This document shows, piece after piece, positions 20,597-52,592 of a DNA stretch of 64,000 nt (its first letter is position 1; each line of letters opens with the position of its first letter). The stretch is from an uncultured virus (IMG/VR IMGVR_UViG_3300023237_000005) (taxonomy: Duplodnaviria > Heunggongvirae > Uroviricota > Caudoviricetes). Under the pieces are notes generated by a model. That model did no database searches. It was given only the letters and a program-made list of their open reading frames with translations, and was not told the origin of the DNA. The DNA is taken from the IMG/VR virus record IMGVR_UViG_3300023237_000005; one strand, given 5' to 3'. The position numbers and the translations under genes were made by a program.

Positions 20597-21550
20597 ATGG
20601 CAGGTAAACAATACTCCTTCACCGAATTGAATAAAGAGATGAACAAAATCTCTGAATATGGTGATACAATGGATAAGTCAACTATTTCAGAAATTGACCA
20701 CTACATCCCAACAGGCAATTATATGTTAAATATGTGTTTGACTGGATCCTTATTTAAAGGCTATCCAAACAACAGAGCCGTGGCTCTCGCTGGCATTTCA
20801 GGAGCTGGCAAAACCTTTTTGACACTTAATGGTGTTAGAGAAGCACAGCAAATGGGTTACAGTGTAGTATATTATGACTCAGAAAACGCAGTAGATAGGA
20901 CCCTTGTTGAAAAGTTTGGAATTGACACAAAGTTATTCAGATACGAACCGTGTAATACTGTTCAGGAATTTAGAACTTCTGTAACTGCTATTACTGATGT
21001 TCTAATTGAACAGAAGAATAAGGGCATTGAACTACCAAAGATCATGATTATTTTAGATTCAGCTGGTAACTTAGCAACCCAGAAAGAAATTGATGATGCT
21101 AAATCCGGAAGTAATAAAGCAGATATGACAAGAGCAAAGCTTCTGAAATCAACATTTAGAATTCTAATGACCAAACTCGGAATTTGTAAGATTCCTCTCA
21201 TATTCACAAATCATACTTATATGACTACTGATTTATTTGCTAAGCAGGTCGGAGGAGGAGGCTGTCTTGTTCCTGGGTCTCTAGTTCTAATGGCAGATGA
21301 CACATATTCAAAAATAGAGAATATCAACGATGGTGATTTAGTTAAGACATTATCTGGAGATAAGAAAATTGAAAAGACATGGACCTTTGATAAACCTACT
21401 TTTAATGTAGAATTTGAAGATGGTAGTGAACTTACATGTTCAGAAGATCACAGATTCTTTATTGGCAATGCTGATGATGATCCGTTGGATGATAACAACT
21501 GGGTTTTTGTAAAAGATCTAAACAAAGGTTCAGAAATATCTCAATATTGA
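20597..21550 (+). CDS. uvsX: UvsX/RecA recombinase N-part fused to split-intein N-half (IntN 21263-21547, 95 aa)
   Basis: Walker A GISGAGKT, YDSE, ILDS, DMTRAK, TNHTY, then GGGG|CLVPGS...CSEDHRF. Confidence 0.92.
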   Translation: MAGKQYSFTELNKEMNKISEYGDTMDKSTISEIDHYIPTGNYMLNMCLTGSLFKGYPNNRAVALAGISGAGKTFLTLNGVREAQQMGYSVVYYDSENAVDRTLVEKFGIDTKLFRYEPCNTVQEFRTSVTAITDVLIEQKNKGIELPKIMIILDSAGNLATQKEIDDAKSGSNKADMTRAKLLKSTFRILMTKLGICKIPLIFTNHTYMTTDLFAKQVGGGGCLVPGSLVLMADDTYSKIENINDGDLVKTLSGDKKIEKTWTFDKPTFNVEFEDGSELTCSEDHRFFIGNADDDPLDDNNWVFVKDLNKGSEISQY

Positions 21551-21560
21551 GAGGTTAGTA

Positions 21561-21578
21561 GTGGAGGGATCCCTCCAC
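21561..21578. repeat. Perfect GC-rich palindrome
   Basis: GTGGAGGGATCCCTCCAC between the IntN stop and the late box GATATATA at 21583. Confidence 0.8.
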
Positions 21579-21606
21579 CACCGATATATAATCTAAACAT
21601 CTTAAT

Positions 21607-22611
21607 ATGAGTCATTCTTCCTCACGACATATAAATTCTACACGTACTATAAAAGAGTTTAAAATTGTTTTACATGAATGTTTTAAAAACGTTAACTTAC
21701 AGAATTCTGCTTTTATTGAGGATTTATTTTTATATATGTCTAAACTACAAATTAAAGGTCATGTTCATTTTATAGATACATGTTCTGCTTATTTTAAAAC
21801 TAGACGAAATGGGAAGGGTGTATCTAAAATATCTAAAGACTATTGGTTATCTATGGGATGGTCTCTCGATGAAGCAATTAGATTTGTATCTGATCTTCAG
21901 AAGAAACGATCGCACTTTAATATAGATTATTGGTTAAACAAGGGGCTTACTCTCGAAAGGGCTAAATTAGAAGTCAATCGAGTACAATCATATAATTCTA
22001 ATAAGAGATATGAAAAATATACAAAGGCAGAGATATCCGAGCAGTCGGTATGGTCTAAGAAGCATTGGCTAAATAAAGGTTTATCAGAAAAAGAAGCGGA
22101 TTATGAAGTGAGTAAACGCAACTATAGCAAACGAGAATTTTGGAGTAGTGATTCTGAGTACGAAGAAATAAAAAAAATCATAGGCAAAAAAACTTCAGAC
22201 TTTATAAAAGAAAATCCAGAATTATATAGCTCTTTTTTTGGATCGGTTTCAAAGGAAGAGATAGAATTTTTTAAATACACCAAGTTAAAAATTCCAGGCA
22301 TATTGCATAAACAGTTCATAGTTAATGTAAAAAAATCAAAAGAGTTAAATCCGGGTATTGTCAAATACGATGGGTATATTAAGACCAGCCTTGGTATAAT
22401 ATTGATTGAATACGATGGCTTATATTGGCATAACCAAACCTATGATGAAATAAAAGACTCTGTTACGCTTGGCATACGAGATGATATTCTAGGAATACTA
22501 CGAATCTCATGCAAACAATACAAAACTAATAAGAAAAACATTATAAAATTAATTAATCATGGAATTGAAAAAATTAAAAGTAAAGAAAGTAACAGAATTA
22601 AAATCTACTAA
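21607..22611 (+). mobile_element. Free-standing homing endonuclease (Vsr/DUF559-like) between the split-intein halves
   Basis: Repeated (Y/H)WLxxGxS/TxxEA helices; C-terminal KYDGY...IEYDGLYWH...ILRIS. Confidence 0.8.
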
Positions 22612-23227
22612 AGTACACGATTTAACTGTAGCAGATGTTCAGCATTATATAACTAACAACGGAGTAATACATCATAACTCTGGACCTGAGTATGCAGCAT
22701 CTATTATATTATTTCTAGGTAAAGCTAAATTGAAAGATAAAGCTGAAGGCGATGGTAAAGAACAAACTGGAATTATAGTTGCAGCTCGACCTAATAAGAA
22801 TAGATTTGCAAAACCAAAAACAGTAAAATTCCACATTTCCTTTAACAAGGGTATGAATCCTTATGTAGGGTTAGAAGAGTATATCAACTGGGAGAACTGT
22901 AAAATTGGAAGAGGTAAATTTCTAACTCCCAATGACTACAAAAAACTTACTGAAGCAGGAAAAGAAGAATGTATAGAACATATTTATACTGAAGATAGTA
23001 CATCAAAGACATTATATTTCCAGGCTAAAGAAACATCCCGTCAAATATGCGTAGCTCATTTGAATTGCATGGTTCCTACTAACGAATTGTTCACGTCTAG
23101 GGTTATAACTCGAGATGTTTTAGAATTGCTAGAACCGATTATTGCAAAAGATTTTAATTATGGGACAGACGAACTTAGCCAAGAGGACTTCAGTGATATG
23201 TTAGAAGATGGTGTCGAAACAGATTAA
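22559..23227 (+). CDS. uvsX: Split-intein C-half (40 aa, 22559-22678) fused to UvsX C-part
   Basis: MELKKLKVKKV...VHDLTV...GVIHHN|SGPEYAASIILFL, KNRFAKP, GMNPYVGL. Confidence 0.92.
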   Translation: MELKKLKVKKVTELKSTKVHDLTVADVQHYITNNGVIHHNSGPEYAASIILFLGKAKLKDKAEGDGKEQTGIIVAARPNKNRFAKPKTVKFHISFNKGMNPYVGLEEYINWENCKIGRGKFLTPNDYKKLTEAGKEECIEHIYTEDSTSKTLYFQAKETSRQICVAHLNCMVPTNELFTSRVITRDVLELLEPIIAKDFNYGTDELSQEDFSDMLEDGVETD

Positions 23228-25380: not shown

Positions 25381-26306
25381 TTAAATCTAACGGTAGACCA
25401 TATTCTTTAAATTCTAAAGTATATACTGACATTGTTAAGACTTGGATTTTAGAAAATATAATTGGAAACTCTACTATAAACGGTAAACTTTGGTGTATTG
25501 CACATCATTTAGAATACGTTCCAACATGTGCAAATGTTAAATGTAATAAGTACACTAGGTATCATAATAAATTTAAAGAGGGTTTTAGAAAATTTTGTGG
25601 AGATCCAAGCTGCAGTGCTAATCATAAAGAAACGAAAGAAAAATATAAGAAAACTTCATTGAAAAACTGGGGTACTGAAAATCCATTAGAAAATAAAGAT
25701 TTCCGGGAAAGATGCAAGTCTATAGTAGAAGCAAAATACGGTAGTAAGTATGCAATGCAATCTAAAGCATGTAAAGAAAAATATAAGAAAACTTCATTGA
25801 AAAACTGGGGTGCTGAAAATCCACTACAGAATAATGAAATTAGAAAGCACTGTAGAAATACATTGCTTAAAAATTATGGAGTCGATGTTCCAGCCAAAAA
25901 TATTCATATCATGAAAAAAATTATGAATAGTAGGAAAATTAGAACCATAGCGTTTAAAAATAGTGGCATATATTATCAAGGATCTTACGAATTGCATTTT
26001 TTAGAATTAATGGAACAGCATAATATGTTAGCATTAGTAAGTAATGGTTTGAGTTTTAAATACGATTATTTAGATAAGGTAGATAGACTCTATGTTTCAG
26101 ATTTTTTCATCAGTAATTTGAATGAAGTGATAGAAATAAAGTCTAAGTGGACATACAATAGAAGGGGATCTGATATGGTTTTAGAAAATCAAAATTTAGC
26201 AAAAATGGCAACTGTAATTAATGAAGGTAGGAATTTTAAGTTTCTAATTGGTAAGGTTAAAATTGAAGAGTATGTAATATCCTTAAATGTACATTATGCA
26301 AAGTAA
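25344..26306 (+). mobile_element. Free-standing putative homing endonuclease (Cys-rich N-terminus, K..SLKNWG.ENP repeats, PD-(D/E)XK C-terminus)
   Basis: YQGSYE..F, YVSDFF, IEIKSKWT; own late box AATATATA at 25332. Confidence 0.75.
25635..25823 (+). repeat. 51-bp direct repeat (25635-25685 and 25773-25823, one mismatch)
   Basis: AAAGAAAAATATAAGAAAACTTCATTGAAAAACTGGGGT(A/G)CTGAAAATCCA twice, 138 bp apart. Confidence 0.9.
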
Positions 26307-27399: not shown

Positions 27400-29565
27400 A
27401 TGAAGCTCCACTCGATAGAATTTAAGAACTTCGCAAGTTATGGCAATAGAGTCCAAAAAATAGACTTTGAAGATGTTGGCAATTTGTACTTAGTGCTAGG
27501 AGAAAATGGAGCTGGCAAATGTCTTGCAAAAGATACTTCCATTAAAGTTAGCATCGATGACCCAGTTCTTCGAAATCAGTTTTTAGAGTTTATTAAGAAT
27601 AAGAAAGAATGTAAAATAGAAGTACATAAGTACTTTAAGCCAGACTCAAAAACAGAATGTAATATAGGTGATCTGTATGAGTTTAACATGCTTAATAATA
27701 GTGTAAGTGATGGAGCATTTGAAGTATGTACACGGCATGGTAAGAAAAAAGTCTTGGGCGTTGACATAACGGCGTACGATAGCATTCAGCACAAACTAAC
27801 AACTGATACCGGCAAAACTATAGCAAGTTCGCCAGATCATCTGTTCTTTTTTAATGACTGGAAAAAAGCCAAACTATTTAAAGTCGGAGATTGTATAGAG
27901 ACTGAAGATGGTATAGAGCATATAGTTGAAAATAAAATAATAGATGGTACTGCCGATCTATATGACATTGAAGTAGATGAAGTTAAAGAATTTTATGCAA
28001 ACAGATTTGTTTCTCATAACTCGTCCCTTGCTAAAGTCATAACTTATCTCTGTTATGGTAAAACTGAAGGTGCAAATATTAAAGATTTACCTAACCGTGT
28101 TAATGGTAGTATGTGGGGTAGAGTCATTATGACTTGTAAGAACAACCGAGTTGAGATTGAGAGAGGTGTAAGTCCAAGTATATTCACAGTCAAAGTTAAT
28201 GACGTTGAATATGATGTAGCAGGCAAGACTAATCTTCAAGACTTCTTAGAAACTGAAATATTCGATATTCCATACCATGTGTTTAAGAATGTAATTATAT
28301 TATCTGTAAACGACTTTAAGTCATTTATTACAATGTCCACAAGCGACAAGAAGCAAATCGTTGATAGAATTTTTGGGTTCTCTGCTATTAACGAAATGAA
28401 AGAGCTTGTTAAGAATAAGAGGAAGTTAATAGTTGAAGACATTAAAGTATTTGAAGAAGAGATCAAAACGCTCACAGATTCTATTGAGTCTGTAAAGCTG
28501 AAGCTTGATGAATTTGAAAAAGCTACTAATGATAAAAATACTGCGGAGATAAAGACTCTGAAGACTAGACTATTTGAACTTAATGAAAATAAGAAAAAGC
28601 TAGTAACAGCAAATGAAAGGGTTAGATCTATGATCGTTTCATCTACAGAAGAAGCTAAACGCAAAGTTCAAAAGCAACAAGATATTAAGAACGATATTGC
28701 TTCTCACAACAGAGCATTAAAGTTATATGAAAACAATTCGTGTCCAACGTGCAATGCATCTTTAGAATCTGAATTTCACGAAAAAGAAGAAGATAAACAC
28801 AAGTGTGCAATAGCCACACTTGGAACTAATCAAGAAACTATTAAAGCAGAAGTATTAATTGCTGAGGAAAATCTACAAACTGCAAGAGATAACAATAGAA
28901 AGATTATAACTCGTGCTGCTCAGCTTGATACTCAAATGGAACAGATTAAAACTGAGCTTATAAAGATATCAGAAAATAAAGGTCAAAATTCTATACATTT
29001 ACGTGATCTAATTGATGACTTTGATGTTAAGAAAGAATCAAGCCTAAGTGGTAAAACTTCTATTGAAGGAAAGAATTATTACCTATCATTACTTGAAACT
29101 ATTGTAGGTGAGGATGGTATTAAGAACCTAGCTGTCAAATCTATATTACCATCACTTAACAATCACGTAATGCTGATGGGTAAAGAGATGGGTATACCGT
29201 TTGGGGTAGTATTTGATGAGAAGTTTAATTGTGTACTCTATCATTTGGGCGAGGAGATAAATCCCAAGACACTATCAACAGGTGAGAAGAAGAAAGCAGA
29301 TTTCGTAATTATTATGGCATTAATAAAAATGATAAAGACAAGATTCCCTGGATTGAATATTCTGTTTTTGGACGAAATATTTTCATCTATAGATTCTTCT
29401 GGCATATACCATATCATTAATATCCTTCATCAGACCATCAAAGAAGCTAAGATCAACACATTTGTAATAAATCATACAGTATTACCATCAGAATATTTTG
29501 ATAAAAGACTTGAAATTAGCAAAGACTCCGGCTTTAGTGAATTTACTGTTGAAGACATTGGATAA
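27400..29565 (+). CDS. gp46: Recombination ATPase subunit (Rad50/SbcC), intein-containing
   Basis: GENGAGK|S, CPTC zinc hook, LSTGE signature, LDEIFSSID. Confidence 0.93.
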   Translation: MKLHSIEFKNFASYGNRVQKIDFEDVGNLYLVLGENGAGKCLAKDTSIKVSIDDPVLRNQFLEFIKNKKECKIEVHKYFKPDSKTECNIGDLYEFNMLNNSVSDGAFEVCTRHGKKKVLGVDITAYDSIQHKLTTDTGKTIASSPDHLFFFNDWKKAKLFKVGDCIETEDGIEHIVENKIIDGTADLYDIEVDEVKEFYANRFVSHNSSLAKVITYLCYGKTEGANIKDLPNRVNGSMWGRVIMTCKNNRVEIERGVSPSIFTVKVNDVEYDVAGKTNLQDFLETEIFDIPYHVFKNVIILSVNDFKSFITMSTSDKKQIVDRIFGFSAINEMKELVKNKRKLIVEDIKVFEEEIKTLTDSIESVKLKLDEFEKATNDKNTAEIKTLKTRLFELNENKKKLVTANERVRSMIVSSTEEAKRKVQKQQDIKNDIASHNRALKLYENNSCPTCNASLESEFHEKEEDKHKCAIATLGTNQETIKAEVLIAEENLQTARDNNRKIITRAAQLDTQMEQIKTELIKISENKGQNSIHLRDLIDDFDVKKESSLSGKTSIEGKNYYLSLLETIVGEDGIKNLAVKSILPSLNNHVMLMGKEMGIPFGVVFDEKFNCVLYHLGEEINPKTLSTGEKKKADFVIIMALIKMIKTRFPGLNILFLDEIFSSIDSSGIYHIINILHQTIKEAKINTFVINHTVLPSEYFDKRLEISKDSGFSEFTVEDIG
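27520..28020 (+). mobile_element. Contiguous mini-intein (167 aa) in the gp46 Walker A
   Basis: GAGK|CLAKDT...SSPDH...LYDIEV...FVSHN|SS. Confidence 0.92.
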
Positions 29566-40241: not shown

Positions 40242-40779
40242 AAAGAAAAACCGAGGTTGGCGCAAATCAGCTGGCAAATTTAACCTCTATGACGTACAGG
40301 CTATCAACTTCGGTTGGTTTAATCGTAAACACGGCATTCTATTAGAAAACCTCCCAAGAGAAAAGCAAAAGCTGCTTAAGGAGAATGGATTTATGAAATT
40401 CATTAAAGCTGATCCACAAACATACGAAATCATATTCATGGTTGAGGATATGAATAATTGGGGCAAGGTTAGAGAGAAGTCTTATTGGAACCCTTATACA
40501 GATGACTTTTCTACATTAAGAGAAATGGAAGCTGACGCTGGTCTAATAGATTGGAAATGCGCAGTATGCAAATCAGACATTAAGTGTAGAGTTGATTCTC
40601 CAAATAAAGTAGAAAACTTTGTTTGTATACAGTGCACTAAAGCACACAATTCTAAAAACAACATAATAGATCGTAAGATTGTTGATTCTTCTAGGAATCT
40701 AACTAAGCATATGAAAACACTTCTGACTCAAGAACAGAAGGAGTTTATGAAGTATGCAAGTAAATCAAGTAAAACTTAG
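40234..40779 (+). CDS. Hypothetical zinc-finger protein
   Basis: CAVC...CIQC. Confidence 0.55.
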   Translation: MAKKKNRGWRKSAGKFNLYDVQAINFGWFNRKHGILLENLPREKQKLLKENGFMKFIKADPQTYEIIFMVEDMNNWGKVREKSYWNPYTDDFSTLREMEADAGLIDWKCAVCKSDIKCRVDSPNKVENFVCIQCTKAHNSKNNIIDRKIVDSSRNLTKHMKTLLTQEQKEFMKYASKSSKT

Positions 40780-41550
40780 CCCACGCTGTAGACTAATTTT
40801 TGGAAAGGCGAATAAGTTACTCGTTGGGCAAGCATTCCAAACTTCAATTTTTTCCTTCTTTAGATCATCAGCTAATTGTTGAAACCCAGGAATAAATTGC
40901 TTTTCATAAATGTCATGTGAAGTAGCCTTAATTGGATAGCCATCATGGTAATGACTTTCACCCTTTACTATTCCCATATCATATCCAAGTAAAACTATTT
41001 TCTTGGCACCTAAATGATATGCTAAATTGATAGCAGCATACCCACTATTATTACCATGTGCTAATGTATCAGTCCTAGTTTCTAGTCCATATCTTCTTCC
41101 ACGCGTTAGTAAATTAATATCTCCAGTATAATTATTGCTATGTCTTATAGTGTACTTCAATCCTTTGAATTCGTTCACTTTCTCTGTGTACCAAGAATAG
41201 AATCTGCTATCCGTCCAATATAATACATCAGCATTAGGATAGGTAATGAATGATTTATTTATTGCAATGGTCTTTTTCCCAGCTAACTTATTCCATTCTG
41301 CAGTTTTAAGTGATGGGCCTCCACCGATTACGAACACCGTTTCACCGTTCCAGATTCGTTTCACTGAAGTAACTGGAATTTGTGGGTTACGTTTAGGAAA
41401 TGATAAACCTTTCTTAGGTTCTATCGTTGGCACGTGCTTATTTTGAGTAATGGGTACTCTCCTGAATATTTTCGTAGAACGTTCAACTCTGGATTTAACA
41501 GAAGTCGTTGGAAGTATCTTGAGCTTATTATGCTTTCTATTAGGTATCAT
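40765..41550 (-). CDS. Rossmann-fold glycosyltransferase-like protein (DUF115/Maf-like)
   Basis: VFVIGGGPSL, IAIN, NSGYAAINLAYHLGAKKIVLLGYDM, VWNAC; late box GATAAATA on the minus strand at 41557-41564. Confidence 0.7.
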   Translation of the reverse strand: MIPNRKHNKLKILPTTSVKSRVERSTKIFRRVPITQNKHVPTIEPKKGLSFPKRNPQIPVTSVKRIWNGETVFVIGGGPSLKTAEWNKLAGKKTIAINKSFITYPNADVLYWTDSRFYSWYTEKVNEFKGLKYTIRHSNNYTGDINLLTRGRRYGLETRTDTLAHGNNSGYAAINLAYHLGAKKIVLLGYDMGIVKGESHYHDGYPIKATSHDIYEKQFIPGFQQLADDLKKEKIEVWNACPTSNLFAFPKISLQRGLSFT

Positions 41551-41621: not shown

Positions 41622-41861
41622 ATGAAGAACATAGAAAACTTATTACTAACAGAAAAATACCGCCCACAAAATATAAATGATCTCGTTACTCCAAAAAGAG
41701 TAAGAGCTAAACTTGAGCAGGGTGTATATCAGCATCTATTGCTCCATGGAAGTCCAGGAACAGGGAAATGTGTCATTGGCGATAGTCTAATAGAAGTAAA
41801 AAACAAAATCACAGGTAAGATTGAAACAATGTCTATTAGGGATTTTCATACTATGCTTTAG
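41622..41861 (+). CDS. gp44: Clamp loader large subunit N-part fused to a 30-aa split-intein N-half (41769-41858)
   Basis: TEKYRPQ, HLLLHGSPGTGK|CVIGDSLIEVKN... Confidence 0.9.
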   Translation: MKNIENLLLTEKYRPQNINDLVTPKRVRAKLEQGVYQHLLLHGSPGTGKCVIGDSLIEVKNKITGKIETMSIRDFHTML

Positions 41862-41919
41862 GCCAATATCCCGGCTTCCCATAAAACATTAGAAGTTTTG
41901 AATATATAAAACAAAACAT

Positions 41920-43047
41920 ATGAAATACTTTTACAAAGCAAAGACATTTACTTCAGACATTACACCCAAGTGTAACTTATGTAAGGCCGAACTCCAGATA
42001 AAGAGAGGATATAGTAGAAATACTATTATCGACTGTATTAATGATAATTGTGTTACTAATAAACCTGAAGTTAAACGCATAGATAGATTTAATGCGTTTT
42101 TACCACCCGCATTAGTTGAAAGCTATATCGCAGCTATGAAGTTAAACTTTAAGTATAACAGACCAAATTCAATTCATTATTGGTTGAAGCGAGGTTATTC
42201 TGAAGAAGATGGGTATAAGCAAATGTCCATTGTCCAATCTGGTATTGCAAAACAAGTCAAAAACCATTTTAAAGGGACGAAAGAAAATCTACTAGCACGT
42301 GGGTTCTCAGAGGAGGAGATTTATAATATGCGACTTCTGCCAAATAATGTTGATTTTTGGTTGAAGCGAGGTCATTCTATAGATGAAGCCACAGCTGCTG
42401 TGAAGAAGCACCAAAGCAAAGCAGGTAAAGCATTTGCAGATAAACGTAAAGCAAATCCAGAAAAATATGATGCCATGAGTACTACGCAGTTTAAATACTG
42501 GATGAAATTAGGACACACTGAAACTGAGGCTAAAGCATTAGTAAAAGAAAGACAAGCTACTTTCACTTTAGAGAAATGCATCAAACAACACGGTGAAGTA
42601 GAAGGTACTAAAATTTTTGAAGAACGGCAAAGAAAATGGAAAATCGCATTACAAAAGAATTTTGAAAACTATGGAGATGGACGTTCACCGTCAAGTCAGT
42701 TTGCTTCTTCCATGATAGAATCTATTTGTAATGAATTGCAAATGGACATTCCTAAAAAAGAAAGGTGGATAAATGGAGGAGATATTAAATGTTCTTATGA
42801 TTTTACTCATAAAGAAAAGAGAAAGATCATAGAATTTAATGGAGATTATTGGCACTGTAATCCTACCATGTATAATGAAACTGACATTATTAGAGGCGGT
42901 AAAACTGCAACTGAAGTATGGGATTACGACAAAAGAAAAGCTAAATTGGCTAACGATAAAGGTTATGAGGTCCTTGTAATATGGGAACACGAATGGAATG
43001 ACTCAAAAACAGAAGCATTAGAGAAATGCATGAACTTTTTAAACTAA
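41920..43047 (+). mobile_element. Free-standing homing endonuclease (Vsr/DUF559-like) between the split-intein halves
   Basis: YWLKRGYSEE repeats; SYDF, IIEFNGDYWHCNP, VLVIWEHEW; late box at 41901. Confidence 0.85.
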
Positions 43048-43053
43048 AATAAT

Positions 43054-44217
43054 ATGAAAAAATTTATAGAGAGTAAAAAAATTAATGATTATCAAGTACT
43101 ATCAGATAGCGGCTGGGAAGATATAGCAACTTCGCATAAGACTATACCATACGAAGTATGGACTATTACTACTGAAGATGGGCTTAAACTAAGCGGTGCA
43201 GATAATCACATTTTGTTTGATGAAAATTACAATGAAATTTTCATAAAGAATTTGAACGTTGGTGATTGCATAGTGGTAAGCGAAGGTAGATCTATCATTA
43301 AAGATATCTATAAGGACGGTACTTCTGAGGAAATGTATGATTTAGAGCTACCTGCTGGTACAAATCATAGGTATTATACAGACAGCATATTATCACATAA
43401 TACTTCTGCCGCAAAGGCTCTAGTGAAACACTTCGAACATCCATATATGTACATCAACGCTTCAACTGACACTAGTGTTGATGTAGTAAGAAACAGAATT
43501 ACTGACTTTTGTGCTAACCGAAGTATTATGGACAAGCCAGGAAAAATGAAAGTAATTATATTAGATGAGATAGACGGAGTATCTGACCAATTTTTCAAAG
43601 CACTCCGAGCAACTATGGATATGTTCTCAAAGAATGCAAGATTCGTAGCAACGTGTAATTACATCAATAAGGTTCCTGATCCAATTAAGTCAAGATTTGA
43701 AATGATCGACTTCGATTTTGGTAAAGATGAGGAGACTGAGATTATGAAAGGCTATATTGTTAGAATACTTGAAATTTGTAAAGCTGAGGATATAACAATA
43801 GAAAAATACGCAGCAGTAGAATTAGTGAAACGAAAATTCCCAGATCTTCGTAACATGCTAAATACACTTCAAGGCTTTAAGTCAGAAGGTAAAGAACTTA
43901 TAACAGTTGAAGATATTAAGAAGTTCAGTTCACTATTCTCTGATGTGTATGATCTTGTCATTGATGGGACTGACCCAGTAAAAAGCTATGAGTATATGGT
44001 ATCGAACTATTCCAACCGATGTGATGACATTCTATCATCTTTAGGTGGGGAATTTATTGACTTCATAAAGAAGGAAAGACAATCGTCCATTCCATTAATT
44101 CCTCAGATAGTTGTTACAGTATCTAAATACCAATCACAACGCCTACAGGTCATTGACCCTGTTATATCTATGTTGGCGTGTATTTACACCTTGCAAACTA
44201 TAATAAAGGAAGGATGA
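43054..44217 (+). CDS. gp44: Split-intein C-half (116 aa, 43054-43401) fused to clamp loader C-part
   Basis: ...ADNH...MYDL...ILSHN|TSAAKAL, INAS, ILDEIDG, TCNY..K..DPIKSRF, FPDLR. Confidence 0.92.
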   Translation: MKKFIESKKINDYQVLSDSGWEDIATSHKTIPYEVWTITTEDGLKLSGADNHILFDENYNEIFIKNLNVGDCIVVSEGRSIIKDIYKDGTSEEMYDLELPAGTNHRYYTDSILSHNTSAAKALVKHFEHPYMYINASTDTSVDVVRNRITDFCANRSIMDKPGKMKVIILDEIDGVSDQFFKALRATMDMFSKNARFVATCNYINKVPDPIKSRFEMIDFDFGKDEETEIMKGYIVRILEICKAEDITIEKYAAVELVKRKFPDLRNMLNTLQGFKSEGKELITVEDIKKFSSLFSDVYDLVIDGTDPVKSYEYMVSNYSNRCDDILSSLGGEFIDFIKKERQSSIPLIPQIVVTVSKYQSQRLQVIDPVISMLACIYTLQTIIKEG

Positions 44218-44381
44218 AAATGACAAAAATATTTTTAGACTGGGCAATAGCTAAATTTCCAAACGATGCTGAATTAGGTAAAGTTTTCAGAGAATTTTAT
44301 AGCCTAGCAAAAAAAGGTGGAAATACTGGAGAATCAGGCCGAGAAGCTGAGGAACAAATAATGACAAAATATTTCAATTAA
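44178..44381 (+). CDS. Small hypothetical protein (start uncertain)
   Basis: FPNDAELGKVFR motif. Confidence 0.45.
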   Translation: MYLHLANYNKGRMKMTKIFLDWAIAKFPNDAELGKVFREFYSLAKKGGNTGESGREAEEQIMTKYFN

Positions 44382-44422
44382 CATTGTTTTTGTTATATTG
44401 TTATTGAATAAAGTATATAAAT

Positions 44423-45646
44423 ATGAATAAGAACAAATACACATTAATCGTAGATGGGAACTATTTTTTGTTTAGAACATTACACGTTCTCCCAAGTAGT
44501 TTTAAAGGTGGTGACATTTTAGGTACAGATGAAGATGTTGAAGCATATATCAGAAAATTAGCAACAGACCTAACATATCAAATCCGTCTTTTTGATGGAG
44601 CAATTGATACAGTAATCTGGACACTTGATTCAAAATCTTGGAGAAAGGATTTCTACCCAGAGAAAGAATACAAAGGAACACGTAAACAGAATAAGTTAAT
44701 CAACTGGGAGAACTTTACAAGTGCAACCGCAACATTCAGTGAATTGCTCCAGAAAGCAGGAGTGACAATATCTAAAGTAGATGGTGCCGAGGGTGATGAT
44801 TTAATATACGCATGGAATACAGAGGTTCTATCAAATGATAAGTCTGTAGTTATTCTGACTGGAGACCGAGATATGATCCAGCTCGTGGGTCAAAATGAGA
44901 ATAATGCACATACAGTGTTCTATACTCCAGCGCATAATAAGCTATATGTCCATGAAGGATTTACACAGTGGTTAGAAAAACCTGTAGAAGTTGAAACTGA
45001 TTTCTTTTCTGCTCTAAGATCGCATGGAGTAGGTGCTGGGCAAATGTGTAAGTCATTACGAAATGTAATCACTACAAAGAATCTTGAAGTTATAGAACAG
45101 AACCCAGATGAATTTATGTTTAAGAAAGTTCTAACTGGAGATAAGGGTGATAACGTAGCTCCAGCTTATTCTAAGATTATGACAACAAAGAGTGGCAAGG
45201 AACGTACTTACGGCGTGAGTGATAAGATGGCTGCTACTATTTACGAATCGTTTATAACTCTACACGGACCTTTCAATTATATGTACTTGTTTGAGGACGG
45301 GTGCCTTAATGACATGGCAGACCTTCTAATACGAGAGCTAAAAATAGTTGATGTAAGTAAAGAACTTCTTTTAACGAATATCAGAAGTAATATCAACTTA
45401 ATGATTTTATCTTCAAAGACTATTCCTGAAGGAATCTTAGATGAAATGTTCAAATCTATTGAGTTGCAGATTGGTAAAGATACGATAGATCATAAGAAAG
45501 TAACTTCTATGCAAAAACTATTAGCTGGAACAAAATGGATCAAAGATAATAATCCTGGAATGTCTTCATCGGTATTCGGAAAAGAAAATGTTGATACTGG
45601 GATGTCATTTATCTCAGATCGTAAACAAAAAGGAACATTATTCTAA
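44423..45646 (+). CDS. rnh: RNase H / 5'-3' flap exonuclease
   Basis: IVDGN, SWRKDFY, YKGTR, AEGDD, TGDRDMIQL, GDKGDNV. Confidence 0.88.
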   Translation: MNKNKYTLIVDGNYFLFRTLHVLPSSFKGGDILGTDEDVEAYIRKLATDLTYQIRLFDGAIDTVIWTLDSKSWRKDFYPEKEYKGTRKQNKLINWENFTSATATFSELLQKAGVTISKVDGAEGDDLIYAWNTEVLSNDKSVVILTGDRDMIQLVGQNENNAHTVFYTPAHNKLYVHEGFTQWLEKPVEVETDFFSALRSHGVGAGQMCKSLRNVITTKNLEVIEQNPDEFMFKKVLTGDKGDNVAPAYSKIMTTKSGKERTYGVSDKMAATIYESFITLHGPFNYMYLFEDGCLNDMADLLIRELKIVDVSKELLLTNIRSNINLMILSSKTIPEGILDEMFKSIELQIGKDTIDHKKVTSMQKLLAGTKWIKDNNPGMSSSVFGKENVDTGMSFISDRKQKGTLF

Positions 45647-45657
45647 TAACTATATAG

Positions 45658-46068
45658 ATGGCATTAAAATTATTTGATTATCTAAAAGTCGTATTTGGTA
45701 CCGATGAACAATGGGATAAACTAACTGCTTACGACAAAAGCAAAAACTCATTTATGTTAAACCGAATGTTTAGCTGTAAGTTTCCAGTCCAAGCTAATAT
45801 GTTCAATGCTCTCAAGACCGATCCTGTTGGGACCGCTGAGTGTTGGAGACTAGTAGGTTCTAAATTTAATAGAGTTCCTGGATTTATTTACACGAAAGTA
45901 TCAAAGAAATCAGTTAAGAAGAAATGGGATCCTAATCAAGAAGTGGTGAATGAATATCTAAAGCTCAATCAAATTGGTAATCGTGAATTTCAAGAAGCAC
46001 TTAAATTCAATCCTAAAGAAGTAAAGAAATCAATAGATAATCTAGAAAAACAAATGGGTTATGATTGA
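45658..46068 (+). CDS. Putative clamp loader small subunit (gp62-like)
   Basis: LFDYL, FMLNRMFS pattern; size and position. Confidence 0.5.
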   Translation: MALKLFDYLKVVFGTDEQWDKLTAYDKSKNSFMLNRMFSCKFPVQANMFNALKTDPVGTAECWRLVGSKFNRVPGFIYTKVSKKSVKKKWDPNQEVVNEYLKLNQIGNREFQEALKFNPKEVKKSIDNLEKQMGYD

Positions 46069-46717
46069 AACTGAAGATTTTGAACTAGGCATTCCAACAC
46101 ACATTAAGTTTACATTATATCGTTATGATTATATTGATGGTCTTCTAATATCAACACTCACAAGAGAATGTGAGAATATTTCTATAGAAGATAGTGTTTA
46201 TACGATTACTAAGAATTCTTTTGAGTACGCAATAAAGAATTCATTAAGACTTAAAAAGATTGCGACGAAAGCAGAGTCATTCCGTCCAGGCGATAAGACT
46301 GCTGTTAATTCATTGTTCTTTCTTTGGCAAATAGTTAAAGGTTTACCTAACATAGAATTCCTATCGTTTAATACTTCTAAAGAAAAGGAGTTTACTCGTG
46401 TTGTTAAAGTTGGTACAGCTGAGGTTGTTAACTTCATATATTACATTGAAGAAGGTTATTTGGATATGACACAGATATTACTTAGAGAAGATCTTGATCT
46501 ATTTAATAAGCAGGCTATCAAGATGGGAATGCTAACTAATCGTTATCTTAATCGCTCACCATATTTCTATGGAACAGCTGCTCGAATCTTTAATGTAGTT
46601 GAGGCAACAGCTTTGGCTGGTTCAGAAGACGCACATATGTTGCTTGAAACGCTTGACTCAAAACTTGAATCAGACAATCCAATTCTATTAGTAAAGACTG
46701 ACTATAGTTCATACTGA
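46061..46717 (+). CDS. Hypothetical protein
   Basis: Coupled ORF of 218 aa. Confidence 0.55.
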   Translation: MIETEDFELGIPTHIKFTLYRYDYIDGLLISTLTRECENISIEDSVYTITKNSFEYAIKNSLRLKKIATKAESFRPGDKTAVNSLFFLWQIVKGLPNIEFLSFNTSKEKEFTRVVKVGTAEVVNFIYYIEEGYLDMTQILLREDLDLFNKQAIKMGMLTNRYLNRSPYFYGTAARIFNVVEATALAGSEDAHMLLETLDSKLESDNPILLVKTDYSSY

Positions 46718-46742
46718 TTAAATTCGTACATATATTTTACAA

Positions 46743-46773
46743 AAAAACGAGGTGCTATTAGCACCTCGTTTTT
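46743..46773. terminator. Rho-independent terminator, possibly bidirectional
   Basis: AAAAACGAGGTGCTA-T-TAGCACCTCGTTTTT. Confidence 0.85.
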
Positions 46774-46804
46774 ATTTGCACTAGAGTCAGATATATACAT
46801 TGTA

Positions 46805-47230
46805 ATGACCGGAATTTTTAGAAGATGCTGTGACTCCAAACGAGAGTGTATGACATACCTAGTAATGTTACTTTGGATTGGACTGGGAGTCTTAGGCTTC
46901 TTTTTCGATACGAACTATACACACTTAGCTGCGTACTTCCTTTCACTTACTGGCTTTATCATGAGTTATATGTTTGGAGAATCATATCGTCAAAGTAAAG
47001 ATTCTTCAATCTTTACGAGTGGTAAGACAAGTAAACGTGAAGCAATAATGTATCTGACTATAGTAATGTGGACAGCAATTGGAGTTTACGGTGTGATTGA
47101 AACGAAAGATCTTATGGCACTTAGTGCATACTTCGCAGCACTTACGCCTTTCGTTGGTGCTTATGTTATAGCAGATAGTGTAAAATCTGAAGGTGGAAGT
47201 ACTGGAGATTCACAACAACTTAATTCATAA
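46805..47230 (+). CDS. Four-TM membrane protein with internal duplication
   Basis: KRE..Y....W..LGV.G......LAAYF..LT.F...Y...S occurs twice; late box at 46790. Confidence 0.65.
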   Translation: MTGIFRRCCDSKRECMTYLVMLLWIGLGVLGFFFDTNYTHLAAYFLSLTGFIMSYMFGESYRQSKDSSIFTSGKTSKREAIMYLTIVMWTAIGVYGVIETKDLMALSAYFAALTPFVGAYVIADSVKSEGGSTGDSQQLNS

Positions 47231-49176
47231 TGGTAGAGGGCACAAAGACAGATGAAAACGGAGATGCTATACTAATCTCATTACAAGAACCTTACAATAA
47301 CGTAGTAGAAGTAATTGGATTTACTGACGAAGTTCTCGGTGAGGATACTTCTTGTTTTTATAACAAAACTTTCAGGTGGGGTACAGACGGTATTTCGTAT
47401 TCTGACTGGGTAGAGTTATCTGACCTTAATTTGCAAGGCATACAATTAAATCCAACTGAACCGTTTTGGATCGAGTATAAGTATGAACAGTTCGGAAATT
47501 GCGATTTAGAATTCGTTTCTATTGCACTTGAGATAGTTACTGATGGCGGAGTAATATGTAAGGTACCACAGATTGACTGTTGTGATAGTGGTGCACAGTC
47601 AGGTGCACAGAACTTGGTCATAGATTGCTGTGGTTCAACTTGGAACCCGTACGACGTATCAAGAGCAGTGCAGACTTATAATCAAATGAGTGCTGTCGTT
47701 TCAGATATGTTTGGTTTTTGTGTTAAGTATTATAAAACAAAGGCAGATCAAAGAGCGGCAGATGTTATCCTAACAGAGTACACTCTATTCGATGTGATCC
47801 AAGCATCTGAAGTAAAGATATTAGTTCCTGATAATGAATTACCTACGAGGGAAATTCAATTTAACCCAATGCAGATGGACTTCCCAGTACAATTTGAGGT
47901 TCATATAGTTAAATCAGCATTTGAAAAAATATTCGGCATTGGTTCGCATCCTGAGATGAGAGATTATCTTTATTTTGAACAGTACATGAATAAGATGTAC
48001 GAGGTAGATGCAATAGCAGAGGCTGACGATTTTTTATATAGTGGTTCATATTGGAGAGTAAGCCTAGTTCCATACCAAAGAAGGACTGCAGTTCAGTTCC
48101 CAGATAAAAATATTGAATTAGAAGTTGACGGACTAATCTCAAGTGTAGAAACTGAGCTAGGTGCTGCTAGGGATATTGAATATGAAGATACTCGAAAGCC
48201 AAATCAGTACAATACTATTGGTACATTAGCTAATGACTATGTAAGACGTATACTTGATAGAAAGCTTTTAATTAGAGAAGAGAATCTATATAACCGCTGG
48301 ACTATCATTTCTAAATATCATTACAACCTTTCGTCTATGAATTTGGGTGAAGAAACTATAGAATATAGATATAAGAAAGGATGGGACTTAGATGAAAGTC
48401 GAGCATTCACTTCTTGGTTTAGACCTAAGTACCTTACACCAGTTGGAAGTAACATTCTTATTACTGGAATAATTGATGCTGGCGGAAAGGCCGTTATTCA
48501 AACTGCTGGGCTTCCAACTGATCCTAGAACACTAATAAGTATTGGTGATTATATTGTAATTTCTAGAACTCAAGACTATAACGGTATACATAAAATTACA
48601 TCTATAGCTGGAAGTGACATTACATTAGCAACAGATTATACGAGTTCAGTTTTATTAGGAACTCCAAAATTCAACAAAGAAGTAGGTAATACTTCATTAG
48701 TATATGATTCTGATTCTGATAGACTATTTAGTATTACGCAAACTCTAAATTGGTTCATTATTCTTATAGATGGTGTTCAGCATAGTTACGATTTATCTGC
48801 TCAGGGGCTTCAGCTCCTTTCAGACGAATGGTACGCTTTTGTTATTAATATTAATAATAAGTCAAGACAGCTTAGCTTATTTATATATAGCCGTGGTGAA
48901 ACATCAGGTACAATCAACCCAGAAAGAACAGCGGAATTATCATTGGCATATTCTAAGACAACTGCAAACATTCAAACCATACTTCCCAATGACGAGAAAT
49001 GGAAGCTTATCGCTTGTCAATCTGATATTACAAACATCAGAATTTGGAATACTCCAATTGAAGTTGAACTTCATGATCTAGTTTTAAGCCAGTATGTTGT
49101 AAGAGATACCCACTTGACTGAGCTTATAGATAACGCCTCTCCAGAATTACTCACTACTGTGATAACTAATACTTAG
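47230..49176 (+). CDS. Neck/head-closure protein (gp14-like) with additional beta domains
   Basis: FGFCVKYY, DVILTEY, FEVHIVKSAFEKIFG..P..RDYLYF...KMYEV; C-terminal LamG-like WYAFVIN...NIRIWN. Confidence 0.55.
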   Translation: MVEGTKTDENGDAILISLQEPYNNVVEVIGFTDEVLGEDTSCFYNKTFRWGTDGISYSDWVELSDLNLQGIQLNPTEPFWIEYKYEQFGNCDLEFVSIALEIVTDGGVICKVPQIDCCDSGAQSGAQNLVIDCCGSTWNPYDVSRAVQTYNQMSAVVSDMFGFCVKYYKTKADQRAADVILTEYTLFDVIQASEVKILVPDNELPTREIQFNPMQMDFPVQFEVHIVKSAFEKIFGIGSHPEMRDYLYFEQYMNKMYEVDAIAEADDFLYSGSYWRVSLVPYQRRTAVQFPDKNIELEVDGLISSVETELGAARDIEYEDTRKPNQYNTIGTLANDYVRRILDRKLLIREENLYNRWTIISKYHYNLSSMNLGEETIEYRYKKGWDLDESRAFTSWFRPKYLTPVGSNILITGIIDAGGKAVIQTAGLPTDPRTLISIGDYIVISRTQDYNGIHKITSIAGSDITLATDYTSSVLLGTPKFNKEVGNTSLVYDSDSDRLFSITQTLNWFIILIDGVQHSYDLSAQGLQLLSDEWYAFVININNKSRQLSLFIYSRGETSGTINPERTAELSLAYSKTTANIQTILPNDEKWKLIACQSDITNIRIWNTPIEVELHDLVLSQYVVRDTHLTELIDNASPELLTTVITNT

Positions 49177-49230
49177 TCACTTTTGAATATAACTTAGTTC
49201 CTAACATAATATATAATACAAAGGATTAGC

Positions 49231-49854
49231 ATGAAGGAAGAAGACAAGGAAGAGGTTCGTTCAAGTTTGGATGATTTGCTAGGATACGATTTACCAGCAG
49301 AAGTCCCAGGTTTAAGTGAAACACCACAGCTATCCAGAGTAAAGGAAGAACATCAAGTTACTCCAGCAGAAGATAAAGCTAAGAAGAAAGCCAAGAAAAT
49401 CATGGACAAGCTTCTTAGGTTCTACTTAAGTGAGGAGATCATAGAAGAACAAGAATACATTCAGGCTAAAGCCGAACTTGATAATCAAGCGTTAGGTGCT
49501 CTCATCAAGCAAATGGATAACAGTGAACGTGCCATCAATAAGCTGATGGATACGATATTTGAAGGTGATGTTGCTCCAAGGATGTTCGAAGTATTAAGTG
49601 ATCTTCAAAGAACCATGTTAGACATAATTAAGAGTCAAACTATGTATATGGTCGCAATTGAAGAAAATGCAAAGAAGATGGCTCGTGAAATCGACATCTA
49701 TCAAAACAATGGCTCAGCGGCTACAGATTCTCAAAAAGCACAGGGTGGTGCTAAGTCACGTGGTACTAAAGATCTCATGAGAGCACTCCAGAATACTATT
49801 GCAGCTGAGGATGCCCAAGATGTTGAAAGCAAAGAAGATGATGGAAATGACTAA
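49231..49854 (+). CDS. Putative terminase small subunit
   Basis: Helical; PRMFEVLSDL and GTKDLM motifs; upstream of the large terminase. Confidence 0.55.
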   Translation: MKEEDKEEVRSSLDDLLGYDLPAEVPGLSETPQLSRVKEEHQVTPAEDKAKKKAKKIMDKLLRFYLSEEIIEEQEYIQAKAELDNQALGALIKQMDNSERAINKLMDTIFEGDVAPRMFEVLSDLQRTMLDIIKSQTMYMVAIEENAKKMAREIDIYQNNGSAATDSQKAQGGAKSRGTKDLMRALQNTIAAEDAQDVESKEDDGND

Positions 49855-50086
49855 TGATTTTGTTCTTCTTAAGGAGTTACCAAAAGAAGAACAAACTAAA
49901 GGTGGTATTATAGTTACTTTAGACAAATGGGGCAGAAGATGTAAAGTAATATCTACACCAAAAGAGTGCCAAGTTAGTATTGGTGATATTGTTCTACGAA
50001 ATGTTGGTAAAGGAACTAGCATTGAATTAGATGGGGTAGAATTTGAAATTTTACACACGAATTGGCTGATAGCTGTATCAGATTGA
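49838..50086 (+). CDS. groES: GroES-like co-chaperonin
   Basis: NDFVLLK...EEQTKGGII, VSIGDIVL, GTSIELDGVEFEIL...LIAV. Confidence 0.8.
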   Translation: MMEMTNDFVLLKELPKEEQTKGGIIVTLDKWGRRCKVISTPKECQVSIGDIVLRNVGKGTSIELDGVEFEILHTNWLIAVSD

Positions 50087-50125
50087 CAAGAATGTATCTC
50101 ATAAGACACTATACACAAAACAACA

Positions 50126-50722
50126 ATGGCTAAACCACAAGCAGAACCGGCAGGATTTGAACTAAAGGTTAGTAAGCAACAAGAATCCAATATTTGGACC
50201 TCCAAAAAGGTAGAGCAGCTTATGATTGCTATTGATGATGGGTACAAGAGTAAGTCTACACCATTTCACGACAGCAATCCAAACTTGCGCAAAGGCAACA
50301 TTGTTTTTGAATATACCCAGATGGAGATTTCAGAAATTAAAAAATGTGCAAAAGACATAATTTATTTTGCTAATAACTATTGTACTGTAATGACCGATAA
50401 CGGTCTTATGACGATAGAACTTCGAGATTACCAAGAGAAGATGCTGAGGCAGTTTGCGGCAGAACGGTTTTCTGTTTGCCTAGCCAGCCGGCAAGTTGGG
50501 AAATGTTTTTTACATTCAACTGAAGTTCTAATTTTAAGAGATGGCACCGCCATTAAAACAACACTTGGTAGACTTTATTTTGAGTCATTAAAACTTCACC
50601 GAAAGCTTACATTTTTAGAAAGAACAAAATATTCTCTGTGGAAGCTGTATGAATGGGAATTAGATTGGAACAAAGATCCAAAACAAACATTAAAAAAATG
50701 TATCAAGTTTTTAAATGATTAA
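50126..50722 (+). CDS. gp17: Terminase large subunit N-part fused to split-intein N-half (50504-50719)
   Basis: KCAKDIIYFANNY, LRDYQ, ASRQVGK|CFLHSTEV. Confidence 0.92.
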   Translation: MAKPQAEPAGFELKVSKQQESNIWTSKKVEQLMIAIDDGYKSKSTPFHDSNPNLRKGNIVFEYTQMEISEIKKCAKDIIYFANNYCTVMTDNGLMTIELRDYQEKMLRQFAAERFSVCLASRQVGKCFLHSTEVLILRDGTAIKTTLGRLYFESLKLHRKLTFLERTKYSLWKLYEWELDWNKDPKQTLKKCIKFLND

Positions 50723-52592
50723 AACTCTCAAACATATCATTCTTCTATTAATAAGTTTCATTGAAGTTATAGAGTATCGTAATATAGATCTTGACCAAGA
50801 TGACGTCTCAAAGAAAATACTAAACTCTATTGAATTAAACAATATTAATGTTTGGACTGATACTGGATGGGAGCCATTATCACATGTACATATTACTCAG
50901 CCATATACAATATGGAAGATAGATACAGATGATGGTTTATCCTTAGAGTGTGCTGATAAGCATAAGGTCTTTGACATAAATTTCAATATTGTTTTTGTAG
51001 AAGATTTAAAACTTGGAGATTTAATACAGACTATCAACGGATTAAGTAGAATATCAAACATTGAAACCTCATTGCATAAAGTAAGTATGTTTGATGTTAC
51101 GGTTGATCATGATAATCATCGCTTTTATTCTAATGGTATATTATCATCGAACACGATTTGTTCCTCGATCTTTATAGCGTGGTACATATTATTTAACTTT
51201 GATAAGAATGCACTAATCTTATCGAACAAAGGTGCAACTACCACAGAAATATTAGATAAGGGTAAAACTATACTTGAGAATCTACCGTTCTTTATGAAGC
51301 CTGGAGTTCTAAAATACGATGTATTTAATTCAAAGTTTGACAATGGCTGCAGAATTATCGGTCAGACAACCACTAAAAAGGCAGCGATTGGATTTACGAT
51401 TCACTTATTATTCATGGATGAGTTTGCTCATATTCCACATCAATTTATTGACGTCTTCTATGAAAACGTTTATCCCACGGTATCAGCATCCAAGAATTCA
51501 AAAGTAATTATAACGAGTACTCCATGGGGGTTCAATAAGTTTTATGAAATATACACCGCAGCCGAGAAAGGCCTAAGTGAATATAAACCATTTAGAATAG
51601 ACTGGTGGGATGTTCCTGGTAGAGATGATGAATGGATGGAGGCTGAAATTCAAAATCTTGGAAGTGAAGAAGCTTTCAACAGACAGTATGGAAATCAGTT
51701 CATCTCAAGCTCATCATTATTATTAAGCCCAGATAGCTTAAAGCGATTACAACAGAACCAAATAGAATATGTACATAGAGACATCCCAGAACTTGATGAT
51801 GAATCTCTAATATACTCAGATTTAAAATGGCATCCTAATTTCAGTATTGAAGATGAAGCCGGAGAAGATAGTAAGTACTGGCTATTTTCTATTGATATTG
51901 CCGAGGGTAATGGTGGAGATTACTCTGTCATTAATATCTTCCAAGTAAATAGCATGGCACTAAAGGACTTGAAGAAAGTAATTTCTCCAGGTAGTATGGT
52001 AGACTTCTTTGGGCTTTATCAAGTTGGAAGATTCAGAAGCAATGAACATAGTATAGACGACTTTGCAAAGGTTTTATATGTATTAATATGCGATGTATTT
52101 AACCAGGAGAATGTAAAACTCTTAATTGAGTGGAATGTATTTGGATCTGAATTAATGAAAAGACTTGAAACGGTTTTCCCACAGCGTAATGACTTTGATG
52201 AGGAATCTGTAACAAAATTCAAACATCGTATTGATGCTAGGACCTCATCTTATGGCCTTAAAGTTAAAAGTGATAATAAGCCAATCTTCTGTCAAAATTT
52301 TAAGAAAGGTGTAGCACAAAATAGAATTATACTTAATGACAAAGATACTGTAAAAGAATCATCTACCTTTGGGAAGATGGCAAATGGCAGATATTCTGGA
52401 CAAAACGGAAATGATGATTTAGTTATGACTGCAGTTAATGCTTCTGAATTCTTAAATACTGTGGATTTCACAGAGTATGTCGAAGAGCTTTATGACTTTA
52501 TCGATGAAGCAGTCCAGGCAGAAATAGAAAATATCTTAGAGCGGGACTTAAGAGATGAAAATCTTAATTATGATATTTATGATTTAGTTTAG
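50715..52592 (+). CDS. gp17: Split-intein C-half (146 aa, 50715-51152) fused to terminase large subunit C-part
   Basis: ...ADKH...MFDVTV...GILSSN|TICSS, MDEFAHI, TSTP, WWDVPGRD, IDIAEG.GGDYS, NDDLVM. Confidence 0.92.
   Translation: MIKTLKHIILLLISFIEVIEYRNIDLDQDDVSKKILNSIELNNINVWTDTGWEPLSHVHITQPYTIWKIDTDDGLSLECADKHKVFDINFNIVFVEDLKLGDLIQTINGLSRISNIETSLHKVSMFDVTVDHDNHRFYSNGILSSNTICSSIFIAWYILFNFDKNALILSNKGATTTEILDKGKTILENLPFFMKPGVLKYDVFNSKFDNGCRIIGQTTTKKAAIGFTIHLLFMDEFAHIPHQFIDVFYENVYPTVSASKNSKVIITSTPWGFNKFYEIYTAAEKGLSEYKPFRIDWWDVPGRDDEWMEAEIQNLGSEEAFNRQYGNQFISSSSLLLSPDSLKRLQQNQIEYVHRDIPELDDESLIYSDLKWHPNFSIEDEAGEDSKYWLFSIDIAEGNGGDYSVINIFQVNSMALKDLKKVISPGSMVDFFGLYQVGRFRSNEHSIDDFAKVLYVLICDVFNQENVKLLIEWNVFGSELMKRLETVFPQRNDFDEESVTKFKHRIDARTSSYGLKVKSDNKPIFCQNFKKGVAQNRIILNDKDTVKESSTFGKMANGRYSGQNGNDDLVMTAVNASEFLNTVDFTEYVEELYDFIDEAVQAEIENILERDLRDENLNYDIYDLV

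Follow-up and report, generated by a model that had tools for sequence, protein, structure and literature searches.

Split inteins of one family at the Walker A sites of gp44 and TerL in a T4-like phage: predicted orthogonality and its alternatives

Introduction

We analysed a 64,000-nucleotide (nt) stretch of DNA from an uncultured virus (IMG/VR IMGVR_UViG_3300023237_000005), which in its full length is called the window. It is a segment of a large T4-like phage with 35% guanine plus cytosine and genes for capsid, portal, sheath and late sigma factor, and 20 public runs, most of them under the label 'salt lake metagenome', contain it. Five inteins were found in the window: split inteins in the clamp-loader gene gp44, the terminase gene TerL and UvsX, and contiguous inteins in gp46 and the family B DNA polymerase (PolB), the last two being additional to those of an original prediction made from the sequence. 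This study concerns the gp44 and TerL inteins and whether they splice with their own partners or with each other. With moderate confidence, we predict that they are selfish elements of one family, acquired independently of each other, and that they are functionally orthogonal in vivo.

Results

Organization of the gp44 and TerL loci

The gp44 locus lies on the plus strand. Its N-extein (41622..41768; 49 amino acids, aa; PHROG 168, E 1e-9) begins with an ATG at 41622 and ends in the Walker A residues GK, and four or five homologous short N-genes were found in relatives. The N-terminal intein half (IntN; 41769..41858, 30 aa) is of the type that we call plain and ends after helix alpha1. It is followed by a free-standing homing endonuclease (41920..43047, 375 aa; PHROG 3339/559, E ~1e-5) with a possible C-terminal Vsr-like domain; it matched TIGR00632 Vsr at E 0.004, below the cut-off, and its top PDB match, 3r3p, was weak (E 0.22). 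The C-terminal intein half (IntC; 43054..43401, 116 aa) has the block B His, the block F Asp, a His-Asn end, and thus the penultimate His, and Thr+1. The C-extein (43402..44217; Pfam AAA and Gp44_lid; PHROG 168, E 4e-52) comprises the AAA+ body and lid. A gene with an MptE-like domain (40765-41550), the sole long minus-strand gene in the window, directly precedes gp44-N.

The TerL locus is also on the plus strand. Its N-extein (50126..50503, 126 aa; PHROG 5989, E 2e-26) ends in the Walker A GK, and the IntN that follows (50504-50719, 72 aa) begins with a core of block A, two strands and helix alpha1 (50504..50602). The IntC (50715..51152, 146 aa) has the block B His and the block F Asp and His, and ends in Asn before Thr+1. 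Its penultimate residue is Ser, compared with His in at least 90% of 45 relatives; a His at this position is common but not universal in class 1 inteins, and Ser-Gln or Leu-Asn ends occur among the relatives. The remainder of the ATPase and the nuclease are encoded by the C-extein (51153..52592; Pfam Terminase_6N; PHROG 2). A gene for a GroES-like co-chaperonin (49799-50086; Pfam Cpn10, E 3e-7) directly precedes TerL-N.

Both inteins show the class 1 hallmarks Cys1, block B His, terminal Asn and Thr+1, and both interrupt Walker A at GK/T (the slash marks the insertion point), as had been predicted. The prediction that both are split just after block A did not hold. The split lies after helix alpha1, at the S2 site (PMC13014065), and a short IntN was found in gp44 only. 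The gp44 pair fits the S2 type, with its 30-aa IntN within the published 15-37 aa. The 72 aa of the TerL IntN exceed this range (PMC13014065, PMC11766414), and lengths of 46-72 aa were found across the 48 related pairs that share its extension. A fractured layout of N-gene, free-standing endonuclease and C-gene on one strand was found at the gp44 and UvsX loci, and TerL retains only an endonuclease remnant.

This remnant, the 3' end of an endonuclease gene (50657..50722, plus strand), is fused in frame to the TerL IntN. The last 21 residues of the IntN were identical to the tail of the gp44 endonuclease at 10/21 positions (z 8) and also resembled the ends of endonucleases located between TerL halves in relatives (L074, L114, L122). 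A TerL-N of 89% identity has another, family-type tail after the same Trp, and among 54 distinct related split loci an endonuclease-sized gap was kept in 42 and a short gap was found in 12. Because the tail matches endonuclease ends and differs from that of the 89% relative, and because most related loci keep the gap, these comparisons indicate that the TerL endonuclease was deleted in frame (~1 kb), leaving a 21-codon remnant on the IntN. As a result of this deletion, the IntN ends on a stop codon that lies within an 8-nt overlap with the IntC start, an arrangement that suggests translational coupling of the TerL halves. A frameshift or assembly error was rejected as the source of the overlap: it is identical in three IMG/VR contigs, which need not be independent of the sample behind the window, and dozens of relatives also have the family in split form. 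At other TerL loci, of the plain type (L038-L043), decayed endonuclease remnants are fused to or overlap between the halves, parallel to the remnant in the window.

Extension helices of the TerL intein

Beyond helix alpha1, the TerL IntN continues as an amphipathic helix (50603..50656, plus strand; residues 34-51), and the TerL IntC starts with a very hydrophobic amphipathic helix (50718..50774, plus strand; residues 2-20). Both extensions, which we call the clasp, are missing from the gp44 pair. Lys42 of the IntN helix was invariant in 40/40 aligned relatives, and Ile13 and Glu17 of the IntC helix in 45/45; none of the three residues was part of the search patterns. The IntN alignment comprised 40 of 50 sequences found, with near-copies dropped and at least 45 aa of IntN required, and the IntC alignment 45 of 59. 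The ratio of nonsynonymous to synonymous polymorphism (pN/pS) in the IntN clasp helix was 0.14 in six close pairs. In the IntC head, pN was lower than pS in 5/7 aligned pairs, the pooled figure being unused because one pair was misregistered. An IntN profile search yielded 58 clusters at 50% identity.

Naturally contiguous alleles (L007-L010, L086, P0134, P0137, P0142) place the two clasp helices end to end. An AlphaFold2 model of one re-fused relative, L009, had helices at residues 34-48 and 52-69 (predicted local distance difference test score, pLDDT, 95), and an AlphaFold model of the window's TerL IntC had a helix at 2-20. The L009 model has the HINT fold and matched VidaL (6vgv; Z 18.1, root mean square deviation 2.1, 135 residues aligned), its structural matches aligning at most 146 of 195 residues. 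By sequence, the window's IntCs matched gp41-1 and CatC, and no match to IntC positions 1-26 was found among PDB inteins. These results suggest that the clasp helices probably serve as a private zipper of the TerL pair and likely pack with a Lys42-Glu17 salt bridge. Clasp-type IntNs were also observed directly after an intein C-terminal motif, not Walker A (P0101, P0102, P0127).

Relationship between the two inteins

The identity between the gp44 and TerL IntC cores was recomputed as 46/115 (40%), the value originally counted by hand, with z ~33 against 500 shuffles; the remaining nine pairs among the window's five inteins were 19-31% identical. Alignment of the gp44 and TerL IntN halves gave no significant similarity (local z -0.2). 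A search with the gp44 IntC found 320 phage records. Among the matches listed (best 60 of 320), identities were 40-43% and the annotated rows were terminases or hypothetical proteins, and the terminase inteins of unrelated Ackermannviridae and of SCTP-2 were likewise 40-43% identical to the gp44 IntC. The mean identity between gp44 and helix-bearing TerL inteins was 41% (186 pairs), and other gp44 inteins were 63-64% identical to that of the window.

In a comparison set of 89 distinct IntC cores, drawn from IMG/VR and from records of phages, the window's TerL ranked 49th among the 88 neighbours of the gp44 IntC, and gp44 ranked 75th for the window's TerL. A quick tree of these cores (116 columns, extension helices excluded) placed the window's TerL inside a 66-row clade (Shimodaira-Hasegawa-like approximate likelihood ratio test, SH-aLRT, 98), which includes four rows first labelled plain that do show the helix, one of them cut short. 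The gp44 intein grouped with two other gp44 inteins and a ClpB-site intein (SH-aLRT 97). Sisterhood of the gp44 and TerL inteins was rejected by the approximately unbiased (AU) test, with p-AU 0.0014 and a cost of 65 log-likelihood units in a 36-row subset; recent duplication of one intein within the genome was rejected by the tree and the same test. These results indicate that the 40% identity is family background and that no special relationship links the two inteins. The original description of two related inteins therefore stands as to family membership, but the pair is not special, the architectures differ and co-residence recurs elsewhere.

The family occupies Walker A in at least six ATPase hosts: TerL, gp44, gp41, gp46, ClpB and another AAA protein. 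By its motifs it is the family of the fractured terminase of Dassa et al. 2009 (PMC2677866), where it was first glimpsed, since, judged by eye, the terminase IntC in the supplement to that paper has the motif series of the plain members. Inteins are known to concentrate in P-loops, with clamp loaders and helicases bearing them at Walker A (PMC4760082); therefore, the shared GK/T site needs no functional link between the hosts.

Empty alleles and co-residence

Contigs of four other public runs were compared with the window; joints at 85% likeness can stem from other organisms. In run X5, a joint skipped exactly 41769-43401 (41768>43402), an empty gp44 allele, and in runs X5 and X7 joints skipped exactly 50504-51152 (50503>51153), an empty TerL allele. 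These joints independently confirm the boundaries of both elements, including both IntN starts. Against an origin from other organisms, a 1,729-nt contig of X7 has just 3 differences and breaks off at 50503, followed by 30 more letters, and the element contigs of X5 formed clean bubbles, with depths per contig, which are not shares of cells, of ~16 for the gp44 element versus 6.7 for its empty joint, and 9.4 versus 17.9 for TerL. Contigs of run X9 run unbroken into both elements, with no empty joint listed. Run X15, which has no cover over the TerL element, was not used. Since both sites also occur as precise empty alleles, neither element is needed.

These data bear on the possibility that a conflict between the two inteins rarely or never arises, either because the TerL pair is decaying or because the elements reside mostly in different genomes joined by assembly. 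The lost TerL endonuclease, the foreign tail and the penultimate Ser would agree with decay, but the other catalytic residues are all present, Ser-Gln or Leu-Asn ends are known in relatives, and no intact TerL gene exists in the window. Separate genomes would agree with the lower depth of the TerL element in X5 and with the finding that no piece in the compared runs spans both sites. However, both elements are present together on IMG/VR contigs of 16 kb and 25 kb, and single X9 contigs are unbroken into each. We consider this explanation distinctly unlikely.

Among the best 80 of 121 gp44 loci, which represent 39 distinct ones, 28 relatives had both genes intact, 2 had both split and 9 had no visible TerL; in none of the 30 relatives with both genes visible was gp44 or TerL split singly. 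A co-occurrence statistic for the two elements (Fisher p 0.002-0.006) was not used because it rests on two events and its rows are not independent. In a further record, G002, TerL is split while gp44 is intact. The original prediction had also raised a post-translational link between replication and packaging, in which the two processes would be coupled by gp44/TerL chimeras or by late gp44-C titrating TerL-N. The shared junction chemistry and the joint splitting in 2/30 relatives would suit such a link. Nevertheless, precise empty alleles exist at each site, 28/30 relatives carry neither element, G002 breaks the association, the partner host varies within the family (gp41, gp46, ClpB, another AAA protein), and a chimera would, judging from the AAA+ and terminase architectures, fuse unrelated ATPase folds at the P-loop. 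The proposed link is thus unsupported, and we regard it as extremely improbable.

In 15 records searched, most of which are fragments, family members were co-resident in 4 besides the window. Plain and clasp members occur together in G004 (gp44 and TerL, both without endonuclease) and in G002 and G008 (gp41 and TerL), with 36-44% identity. G003 holds two plain members, in gp44 and ClpB, with 55% identity (L015 4989-6605; L069 34-3348); the endonuclease of its ClpB-like ATPase is broken, and this record would put orthogonality to its hardest natural test. In the 462-kb record LR756500, the best match of TerL-C in the annotated collection, a conventional intein splits gp44 at Walker B. Two unrelated genes separate the gp44 halves (L236, L237), and a clasp TerL lies alongside.

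Late-promoter-like boxes and timing

The box RATATATAM occurred 19 times in the window compared with 7.6 expected, 18 times on the plus strand, and 0/100 shuffles reached 19, although the pattern was chosen after these sites had been seen and the shuffle test is therefore generous. Boxes precede structural genes and all three endonuclease genes. The prediction of late boxes upstream of the endonucleases is borne out in this respect, but not for TerL, which has a remnant in place of the gene. The nearest box upstream of TerL-N (49208..49216, plus strand) is separated from it by two open reading frames, so that its use for TerL would depend on a presumed operon. At gp44, a weak hairpin (41895..41917, plus strand) ends 2 nt before the endonuclease ATG and carries the box 41901-41909 in its loop; the hairpin is no better than shuffles (z -0.78), compared with z ~-2 at the other two endonucleases. 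This box precedes the endonuclease and gp44-C, and no consensus box lies immediately before gp44-N. Scans of the window for sigma-70 promoters (39 versus 53.9 expected) and terminators (5 versus 4.8 expected) were below chance and at chance, respectively. The third free-standing endonuclease (25344-26306) lies between intact genes, and a strong hairpin (z -2.2) holds its late box and start codon.

The original prediction held that IntC fusions are made late. For gp44-C, late transcription is plausible from the position of the box, a layout described by Dassa 2009 (PMC2677866), and TerL-N with gp44-C would therefore be the risky combination.

Orthogonality and cross-splicing

Each element fractures its host gene into N-gene, endonuclease and C-gene, and the host protein would be rejoined by class-1 trans-splicing (Cys1, Asn, Thr+1). 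If the two elements are orthogonal, as we predict, the TerL halves would add a second interface, the two-helix clasp, which the gp44 halves could neither supply nor bury. Divergence of the IntN halves and of the IntC strand that meets them, where plain members have mostly Phe/Phe and clasp members Leu/Ile, would also favour the cognate pairs. As the TerL-N stop lies over the TerL-C start, the TerL halves are probably made side by side, near 1:1. The UvsX pair would be set apart by its different split and opposite charge polarity, and chimeras, as P-loop hybrids without activity, would be selected against and not used. Functional orthogonality is our best reading because of this divergence, the clasp and the coupling. 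The benchmark is a split-intein pair that is 35% identical and strictly orthogonal (PMC12707363), and 15/16 inteins were orthogonal in another study (PMC7090010). Since both elements are parasites that the phage can do without, mix-ups would probably have little consequence. The choice originally posed between orthogonality and chimeras is a logically fair one. A natural orthogonal set, one of the outcomes originally raised for the window's split inteins, thus appears to be the likelier reading.

Several observations weigh against orthogonality. Most cross-talk in PMC7090010 was due to atypical splits, and the 35% benchmark is split conventionally, unlike the gp44 and TerL pairs. The IntNs of GOS-TerL and AceL-TerL are interchangeable, and binding in such atypical inteins depends on hydrophobic clusters as well as on the N-extein (PMC11766414); the N-exteins of gp44 and TerL both end in GK. 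Both IntCs have a net charge of -10, which has no discriminating power, and charge complementarity was rejected as a discriminator. The packing of the clasp helices against each other is deduced from their adjacency and conservation only, and the clasp-clade locus L128, which was omitted from the IntN alignment, combines a clasp IntC with a 27-aa IntN. G003 keeps its two 55%-identical plain members in one genome without a clasp. A clasp TerL was the sole strong family match in 7/10 records, including the 96%-complete G007; since the clasp is also found in genomes with only one family member, it seems not to have arisen to ensure orthogonality, and an origin for that purpose is unsupported.

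Leaky cross-splicing, the main alternative, has to be taken seriously because atypical splits cross-talk most, the AceL and GOS IntNs are interchangeable and the junction residues are identical. In this case, the pairs would cross-splice measurably, the chimeras would be inactive waste, and their cost would help to keep the empty alleles circulating. Such crossing would most likely join TerL-N to gp44-C that is made late and in surplus and has an unobstructed groove. Identical GK/T junctions, the late box before the endonuclease and gp44-C with none just before gp44-N, the promiscuity of atypical splits (PMC7090010, PMC11766414) and the polymorphism of both elements fit this explanation. On the other hand, the IntN halves are unrelated by alignment, the 40% core identity is near that of the published orthogonal pair (PMC12707363), and co-residence persists in the independent-looking lineage G004, where both endonucleases are lost. 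We consider tolerated leakage somewhat unlikely. It is very improbable that orphan gp44-C, overproduced from the endonuclease-borne late promoter, captures TerL-N and either forms clamp-loader/terminase hybrids or titrates terminase, so that the parasite would tune the onset of packaging and the TerL clasp would be a counter-adaptation to the conflict between the two inteins.

Other inteins of the window

The third split intein, in UvsX (21263..22678, plus strand), is conventionally split, as predicted. Its IntN (21263-21547, 95 aa) has a net charge of -12 and its IntC (22559-22678, 40 aa) of +3, and a free-standing endonuclease (21607-22611, plus strand) lies between the halves. The gp46/SbcC gene carries a contiguous mini-intein (27520..28020, plus strand; 167 aa) in Walker A at GK/S, the third Walker A intein of the window, which is not trans-splicing; it has an insertion after block A, and a similar match was found in relatives G002 and L027. 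PolB is encoded in two genes (2117-3532 and 16022-17659) that are 12.5 kb apart, a break without a split intein. The second contains a contiguous Ser1/Ser+1 mini-intein at 16349-16846, which makes a cysteine-independent junction.

Discussion

The supply of orthogonal split inteins limits protein engineering, and inteins with a short IntN are the most prone to cross-talk. The genomes described here offer natural test sets with the same GK/T or GK/S junction, each within one genome: clasp plus plain at 40% identity in the window, and plain plus plain at 55% in G003. If the clasp is indeed a portable module of affinity and specificity, it would be a new, graftable structural element of inteins. 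The TerL locus appears to catch a step in the life cycle of fractured genes, in which an in-frame endonuclease deletion hands the coupled start codon to the IntN while empty alleles still circulate. In the literature searched, which was mostly without subscription papers, we found nothing on a phage clamp-loader split intein, co-resident family members or extension helices. In this literature, the clamp-loader host, the helical clasp and the natural test sets were thus not found in print.

The closest known system is the gp17-like terminase locus of Dassa 2009 (PMC2677866). It shares the order of N-gene, free-standing endonuclease and C-gene on one strand, an IntC lacking only motif N1 (there 122 aa), and an endonuclease end that overlaps the IntC start. 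Its endonuclease is Vsr-like and is preceded by a late box within a hairpin; the gp44 locus may resemble it in both respects, given its sub-threshold Vsr match and weak hairpin. Endonuclease loss is known there as well (gp41-7) and is a step in the model of that paper. The differences are that the clamp loader is not among the hosts named in the available main text, that the terminase IntC there has no N-terminal helix, and that the available passages describe neither co-resident family members nor an in-frame endonuclease remnant.

AceL-TerL, GOS-TerL and the consensus Cat (PDB 6DSL) are also phage terminase inteins of class 1 that are split after helix alpha1, with IntNs of 25-37 aa (PMC13014065, PMC11766414), and the IntC profile found 6DSL with E 5e-9. 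However, they insert before Cys+1, at a site other than GK/T, instead of the Thr+1 of both window inteins (PMC11766414), and their IntCs of 104-115 aa have no extra helix. The Ackermannviridae terminase inteins (CBA120, VPALA) share the GK/T site and 40-43% identity with the gp44 IntC, but they are in one piece, with no endonuclease gene and no clasp. Archaeal RFC-S, DnaB and MCM P-loop inteins (PMC4760082) likewise occupy Walker A of clamp loaders and helicases, whereas they are cellular and contiguous.

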